A DNA stretch of 64,000 bases from Escherichia coli (lineage in GTDB: Bacteria; Pseudomonadota; Gammaproteobacteria; Enterobacterales; Enterobacteriaceae), in NCBI RefSeq assembly GCF_045037415.1, contig NZ_CP173438.1; one strand, written 5' to 3'. Within the stretch, counting starts at the first letter, position 1, and each line of letters opens with the position of its first letter. Made by a program: the position numbers and the translations under genes. The notes beneath the pieces were generated by a model. That model was not told where the DNA came from. It worked only from the letters and a program-made list of their open reading frames with translations, and ran no database searches. Positions 627-42,527 of the stretch are shown here, piece after piece.

Positions 627-697
627 GATTCGTATTTCCGTTTAAAATGAAGATACGGCGCGATGATACGCGTCGGGTTGTCTCTCTGTTGATACAG

Positions 698-744
698 AGA
701 TACTAGATGTAGTTGAAAAAAGATTCAACCACACAATATATAGC
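698..744 (-). promoter_or_regulatory. Candidate NrdR-box pair in the nrdH promoter region
   Basis: Two AT-rich imperfect palindromes (around 698-713 and 729-744, centres about 31 bp apart) upstream of nrdH; resemblance to NrdR boxes is from memory of the motif, not a scored match. Confidence 0.3.
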
Positions 745-810
745 AAATAATGGTCAGGGTTACCCTGGGGCGAGCGTGACGGGGTAGGGGGATTTTTGTG
801 ATTCACCAGG

Positions 811-31286: not shown

Positions 31287-31389
31287 GTTTGTTTCCTTAA
31301 GTGACTTTAGTACAGTACCCGTACTGTTTTCACGCTGTCAACAAAAAACGCGCCCGAAGGCGCGTTGGCGATACACTCAATATAAAGGA

Positions 31390-31785
<396 letters not shown>

Positions 31786-37318: not shown

Positions 37319-37399
37319 CTATAAGTTAGACGGAAAAGACTATATTTAAGATGTTTTGCCTGAAAAATGAGCGAACGATAAAGTTTTTATATTTTTCGC

Positions 37400-39623: not shown

Positions 39624-42527
<2,904 letters not shown>

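Follow-up and report, generated by a model that had tools for sequence, protein, structure and literature searches.

NrdR couples dNTP supply to the expression of all three ribonucleotide reductases of Escherichia coli, and it has been discussed as an antibacterial target. Its operator at the E. coli nrdHIEF operon was reportedly predicted by Rodionov and Gelfand in 2005, and Torrents et al. are said to have studied the E. coli NrdR operators in 2007. The history of this operator runs from prediction in 2005 through genetics in 2007-2010 to biophysics and structure in 2022-2026. For E. coli K-12, the nrdHIEF operator is covered by two recent studies (Rozman Grinberg et al. 2025, PMC12176259; Shahid et al. 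2025, PMC12051234).

NrdR is built from a Zn-ribbon and an ATP-cone domain. In cryo-EM, the E. coli protein (EcoNrdR) is a tetramer on sharply bent DNA, with one Zn-ribbon pair placed on each of the two boxes of the operator and the DNA sharply kinked at both. With ATP alone, NrdR assembles into filaments or dodecamers in which the DNA-binding face is buried, and the promoter is released. On nrdHIEF DNA, the published KD is ∼130-138 nM in the presence of ATP-dATP (138 ± 32) and 187 ± 36 nM with ADP-dATP, and binding was not detected with ATP alone.

The contribution of each box has also been dissected. Mutation of box 1 shifted the KD to at least 69,000 nM and mutation of box 2 to at least 130,000 nM. 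Isolated single boxes are not bound by NrdR, and duplication of either nrdHIEF box kept binding. A G44C substitution in box 2 abolished binding, as did cutting the C-to-G distance of box 1 to 7 bp. The length of the linker between the boxes matters to NrdR, but its sequence does not. A PnrdHIEF GFP reporter was repressed with box spacings of 15-17 bp and ∼26 bp, and it was de-repressed by box mutations or by deletion of nrdR. In Salmonella, nrdHIEF is de-repressed in nrdR and NrdR1-box mutants, and mutation of the NrdR2 box is without effect on transcription, so that the in vivo shares of the two boxes may be unequal. The same nrdHIEF promoter is also controlled by Fur (repression) and IscR (activation).

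Position and geometry of the nrdH operator

The locus studied here lies near one end of the window, which is the whole 64,000-nt stretch of E. coli DNA that was analysed. The first 1.3 kb of the window carries, on the minus strand, ygaM (873-1214, from the open reading frame listing), an intergenic region, nrdH (381-626, from the open reading frame listing and the RefSeq annotation) and the start of nrdI; the operon under regulation, nrdHIEF, begins with nrdH. An 841-nt query spanning ygaM and nrdH is 100% identical in several complete E. coli chromosomes, where the RefSeq genes are ygaM, nrdH, nrdI and nrdE. A 24-kb segment taken mid-window likewise shows 100% identity to E. coli strains. A terminator scan located the intrinsic terminator hairpin of ygaM at 819-843 on the minus strand; its stem has 11 pairs, 7 of them G-C, and a T-run comes next. 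This delimits the nrdH control region to 627-818 on the minus strand. The preliminary description had placed a pair of palindromes between the ygaM terminator and nrdH, and this placement agrees with the hairpin and with the start of nrdH at 626.

[quoted passage not shown] The register was taken from the published 16-bp box definition and read on the minus strand, which is the coding strand of nrdH; in this orientation the sequence runs CCATTA TTGCTATATATTGTGT GGTTGAATCTTTTTT CAACTACATCTAGTAT CTCTG. Box 1, the promoter-distal box, occupies 731-746 (TTGCTATATATTGTGT) directly upstream of the putative -35 hexamer. The 15-bp linker at 716-730 (GGTTGAATCTTTTTT) holds that hexamer, and the promoter-proximal box 2 occupies 700-715 (CAACTACATCTAGTAT), with its last six bases forming the putative -10 hexamer. 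Box 2 ends 73 nt before the nrdH ATG.

The geometry is that of a paired site. In NrdR operators, linkers of 15-16 bp put the box centres at a distance of 31-32 bp, or three helical turns. Here the centres, 707.5 and 738.5, are separated by exactly 31 bp, and the 15-bp linker sets the two boxes on one helical face, three turns from each other. Box 1 is 75% A+T with 4 of 8 palindromic pairs, and box 2 is 69% A+T with 5 of 8. Both AT-rich imperfect palindromes reported in the preliminary description at a distance of about 31 bp are present, each 16 bp long. The span given for them, 698-744, does contain both 10-bp box cores (703-712 and 734-743), but its register is 2 bp off and the correct span is 700-746. 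All six of the positions C4, A6, A8, T9, T11 and G13 of the published consensus are found in box 1 and in box 2 (6/6 each), and both boxes match the published regular expression.

The nrdHIEF oligonucleotide used for NrdR binding has the sequence ACTAT-TTGCTATATATTGTGT-GGTTGAATCTTTTTT-CAACTACATCTAGTAT-CTCTG (PMC12176259). Positions 751-695 of the window match it at 56 of 57 bases, with the sole mismatch in the 5-nt 5' flank, and the 47-bp operator composed of box 1, linker and box 2 is base-for-base identical. The proposal that paired NrdR boxes form the operator of the nrdH promoter is supported, and for this DNA NrdR binding, box mutants and reporter repression have been published. Every computationally testable feature of such an operator is present at this site, and its biochemistry has been published on DNA of identical sequence. 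The operator is real, but it is an ordinary one and was known before. Working from sequence alone, the preliminary description had come within 2 bp of a genuine repressor operator that is characterised by experiment.

Motif scores and phylogenetic conservation

To place the motif match against chance, both a regular expression and position weight matrices were applied. In the 64-kb window, the loose expression C.[AT].[AT][AT].[AT].G matched 225 single cores; the spaced pairs numbered 7, two of them at nrdH. Being unspecific when used alone, the expression was replaced by matrices. A symmetric matrix was built from four E. coli boxes only, namely boxes 1 and 2 of nrdAB and boxes 1 and 2 of nrdDG; the nrdH site was left out of the training set, which makes the matrix test independent of that site. 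Across ∼64,000 positions, nrdH box 1 scored 12.0 and ranked first, and box 2 scored 10.9 and ranked third. The best single box in random 64-kb sequence reaches 12.5 ± 1.7, so that both of these values are within chance and the significance rests on the pair at a distance of three helical turns. As a pair, the nrdH boxes scored 22.9, and the runner-up among independent pairs in the window scored 7.6 (offset 31 or 32 bp). In 200 first-order Markov sequences of 64 kb, the best pair scored 8.8 ± 3.0, and one of the 200 reached 22.9.

Scanning 690-750 with an NrdR matrix, the check suggested in the preliminary description, accordingly returns the top paired match of the whole window, at 700-746. 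The suggested comparison with the nrdAB and nrdDG promoters also succeeds, in both directions, as matrices trained on either set recover the boxes of the other. When the matrix was derived from the nrdH boxes of non-Escherichia species, the published K-12 nrdAB and nrdDG operators came out as the top upstream pairs.

Several weaker candidates were rejected. The other single-box matches in the window, at 31375-31390, 37337-37352 and 40791-40806, are within chance and lack a correctly spaced partner; the weak core at 744-753 fits the loose expression only. A third box ("box 0") at 31-32 bp from either nrdH box, of the kind present at nrdAB, was not found with the nrdAB/nrdDG matrix; the candidate arrangements at 668-715 (score 8.7) and 731-777 (score 3.1) are each carried by one of the real boxes.

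The conservation of the region was analysed in related genomes. A scan for NrdH in species-representative genomes gave 80 Enterobacteriaceae loci, and the best box pair per locus was searched with any linker length from 10 to 29 bp allowed. The linker of the best pair was 15 bp in 81 of 81 orthologous promoter sequences. In 77 of the 80 loci, 71-75 nt separate the end of box 2 from the ATG; the value of 89-90 nt in the remaining three arises because the protein match began at residue 6. Information content was calculated from an alignment of 77 distinct Enterobacteriaceae upstream sequences, and averaged 1.47 bits for box 1, 1.83 bits for box 2 and 1.89 bits for the GGTTGA segment of the linker. 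The 9 bp of the linker outside GGTTGA averaged 0.91 bits and the upstream intergenic DNA 0.4-0.7 bits. The NrdR boxes are the best-conserved non-coding block, and the phylogenetic footprint peaks on the boxes and GGTTGA.

At the level of single positions, CTACATCTAGTAT of box 2 is nearly invariant over the 80 species. Among the 76 distinct boxes, A8 and T9 never vary, and each of C4, A6, T11 and G13 is retained in 75. The presence of the -10 and -35 hexamers confounds the conservation seen in the 3' half of box 2 and in GGTTGA. The repressor gene itself, nrdR, maps beyond the 64 kb of the window. Of 5426 complete E. coli genomes, 5424 carry it at ≥90% identity, which makes its presence in the source genome near certain. 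The nrdAB operator is found in 5417 and the nrdDG operator in 5422 of the same 5426 genomes.

Promoter overlap, alternative readings and neighbouring features

A putative sigma-70 promoter was read from the sequence on the minus strand. Its -35 hexamer, TTGAAT (723-728), agrees with TTGACA at 4 of 6 positions, and its -10 hexamer, TAGTAT (700-705, inside box 2), agrees with TATAAT at 4 of 6, with a spacer of 17 nt between them. The TTGA of the -35 is invariant across genera, and TAGTAT is invariant in 81 of 81 sequences. We infer that TTGAAT and TAGTAT are the exact hexamers of the nrdH promoter and that transcription would start near 693-695, given the usual distance of 6-8 nt to the -10. This promoter does not appear in the promoter scan because its 8 of 12 hexamer matches fall below the threshold of at least 9 of 12; the scan listed another candidate, with 9 of 12 matches, at 692-663.

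The NrdR boxes are described in the literature as overlapping the RNA polymerase site at the nrdHIEF promoter. Since the linker contains the -35 and box 2 contains the -10, RNA polymerase should be shut out when NrdR is bound. In the proposed model, the bound tetramer would cover approximately -53 to -7 of the promoter and block RNA polymerase, so that the Mn-dependent reductase would be kept off while dATP is plentiful.

The nrdH control region may in addition be a composite operator. In this proposal, the -35 is embedded in a type II activator site for IscR that shares bases with box 1 and the linker, so that NrdR would compete partly with IscR and not with RNA polymerase alone; it would complement the main explanation. 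Type II sites have symmetric CCxYA half-sites in A/T-rich flanks, with the -35 embedded in one of the halves. The literature places the nrdHIEF -35 inside an IscR type II site, and a plus-strand CCACA half-site is present next to the -35, at 729-733. A match to the full CCNYA-N7-TRNGG pattern at 729-745, however, needs two mismatches, which is at chance level (611 matches versus 663 expected). The composite arrangement is put forward tentatively, as a possibility that we consider somewhat unlikely. To our knowledge, there has been no NrdR-IscR competition experiment.

The conserved block could also be nothing but a core promoter, consisting of an UP-like A/T tract, the -35 and the -10, with a coincidental resemblance to NrdR boxes. 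The most invariant bases are in fact the TTGA of the -35 and the TAGTAT of the -10, and both loose-expression matches and single-box scores of this size arise by chance elsewhere in the window. Nevertheless, positions 4-10 of box 2 (CTACATC) are nearly invariant although they fall in the promoter spacer, which is not read by RNA polymerase, and this counts against a promoter-only reading. Box 1 likewise keeps C4, A6, A8, T9, T11 and G13 where its other positions vary, and a matrix derived from other operons selects exactly the 700-746 pair at the exact spacing. As published box mutants on the identical DNA lose NrdR binding, this explanation is already refuted, and we assign it a negligible probability.

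It is also extremely improbable that the palindromes are Fur boxes, with iron-dependent repression of nrdHIEF acting through 698-744 rather than through NrdR: nrdHIEF is Fur-repressed, both NrdR and Fur sites are said to lie on a reporter fragment that extends to 143 bp before the ATG, and weak Fur-like 19-mers occur at 737-755 (11/19) and 746-764 (12/19), but such values are at chance level (60 window positions reach 12/19 and 254 reach 11/19), the best matches lie beside or overlapping box 1 and not on both boxes, a published information-theory model gives nrdHIEF a weak 10.1-bit site only, and the 31-bp paired geometry and the C4/G13 requirement are left unexplained. A search of 698-744 with the 19-bp Fur consensus GATAATGATAATCATTATC, which can also be viewed as clustered GATAAT hexamers, gave a best match of 11/19, again at chance level and short of a good match. 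Over the intergenic region as a whole, the best Fur matches are the one at 746-764, which abuts box 1, and one at 851-869 (13/19), which sits between the ygaM stop codon and the ygaM terminator; both are at chance level.

Beyond the NrdR operator, the intergenic region and the nrdH leader contain several other features. A GC-rich block, AATCCCCTACCCCGT, lies at 793-779 (minus strand), ∼86-100 nt upstream of the predicted start. The two E. coli haplotypes, E. albertii and Salmonella all preserve this block, and its conservation over the 77 Enterobacteriaceae sequences is moderate. The palindrome CAGGGTAACCCTG at 755-767 (minus strand) is located in a hypervariable patch beside box 1; it is present in the haplotype of the window, imperfect in the K-12-like strain examined, and absent in O157:H7-type strains and other genera. 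Directly downstream of the putative -10, at the predicted start, is a perfect 7-bp inverted repeat, TCTCTGT-ATCA-ACAGAGA (682-699, minus strand), the sequence of which is poorly conserved outside Escherichia.

The nrdH 5' leader (627-695, minus strand) includes a small conserved hairpin, CGACGCG...CGCGCCG, at ∼677-656 with weak covariation, and the stability of the leader RNA is not above that of shuffled sequences (z = -0.11). The last ∼25 nt before the nrdH ATG (TTTAAACGGAAATACGAATC) are almost invariant across genera, which exceeds the needs of a ribosome-binding site. An Rfam scan of 1-1400 returned only sub-threshold chance matches on the ygaM terminator.

Comparison with E. coli alleles and known operators

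What the finding shows of the nrdHIEF operator has all been published, and it therefore does not extend present knowledge; for comparative work on regulation, the variation between strains in box 1 and its flank offers a minor lead. The exact 75-nt version of the window is found in ∼574 of 5399 E. coli genomes. Another ∼1368 of the 5399 (about a quarter, including O157:H7) match the 75-nt query only from within box 1 onward. In this O157:H7-type or ancestral enterobacterial allele, as represented by two strains (O157:H7 Z1835 and isolate 68), box 1 reads TTACCATATCTTGTGT or TTCCCATATCTTGTAT, compared with TTGCTATATATTGTGT in the window, and the geometry, box 2, the -35 and the six conserved box-1 positions are shared. 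Both natural E. coli alleles of box 1 thus retain C4, A6, A8, T9, T11 and G13, with the K-12/window type nearer to the consensus than the O157:H7/ancestral type.

The flank and the gene order differ as well. The haplotype difference is located at 741-775 of the window (minus strand). In the same two strains, ∼40 nt upstream of box 1 differ from the window, in the stretch expected to carry the sites for Fur and IscR. Directly upstream of nrdH, both strains have a carboxymuconolactone decarboxylase family gene, and in O157:H7 Z1835 genes of the carboxymuconolactone decarboxylase and PLP-dependent aminotransferase families lie between ygaM and nrdH. The two alleles of the nrdH control region could conceivably give strain-specific set points for the control of the Mn-dependent reductase by NrdR, Fur and IscR, a speculative suggestion drawn from the sequence differences to which we attach little likelihood.

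The E. coli nrdDG and nrdAB operators share with the nrdH site the two 16-bp boxes, the C4, A6, T11 and G13 positions and the 15-bp linker, and the affinity of NrdR at nrdDG and nrdAB (boxes 1 and 2) is similar to that at nrdH, at 113-160 nM. The nrdAB operator differs in having a third box at 31-32 bp, which has no counterpart found at nrdH. The closest relative is the nrdHIEF operator of E. coli K-12, which differs in the 5' flank outside box 1 by a C where position 750 of the window has a T (coding strand), and which has the same 47 bp at the same position relative to nrdH, with the same promoter overlap.
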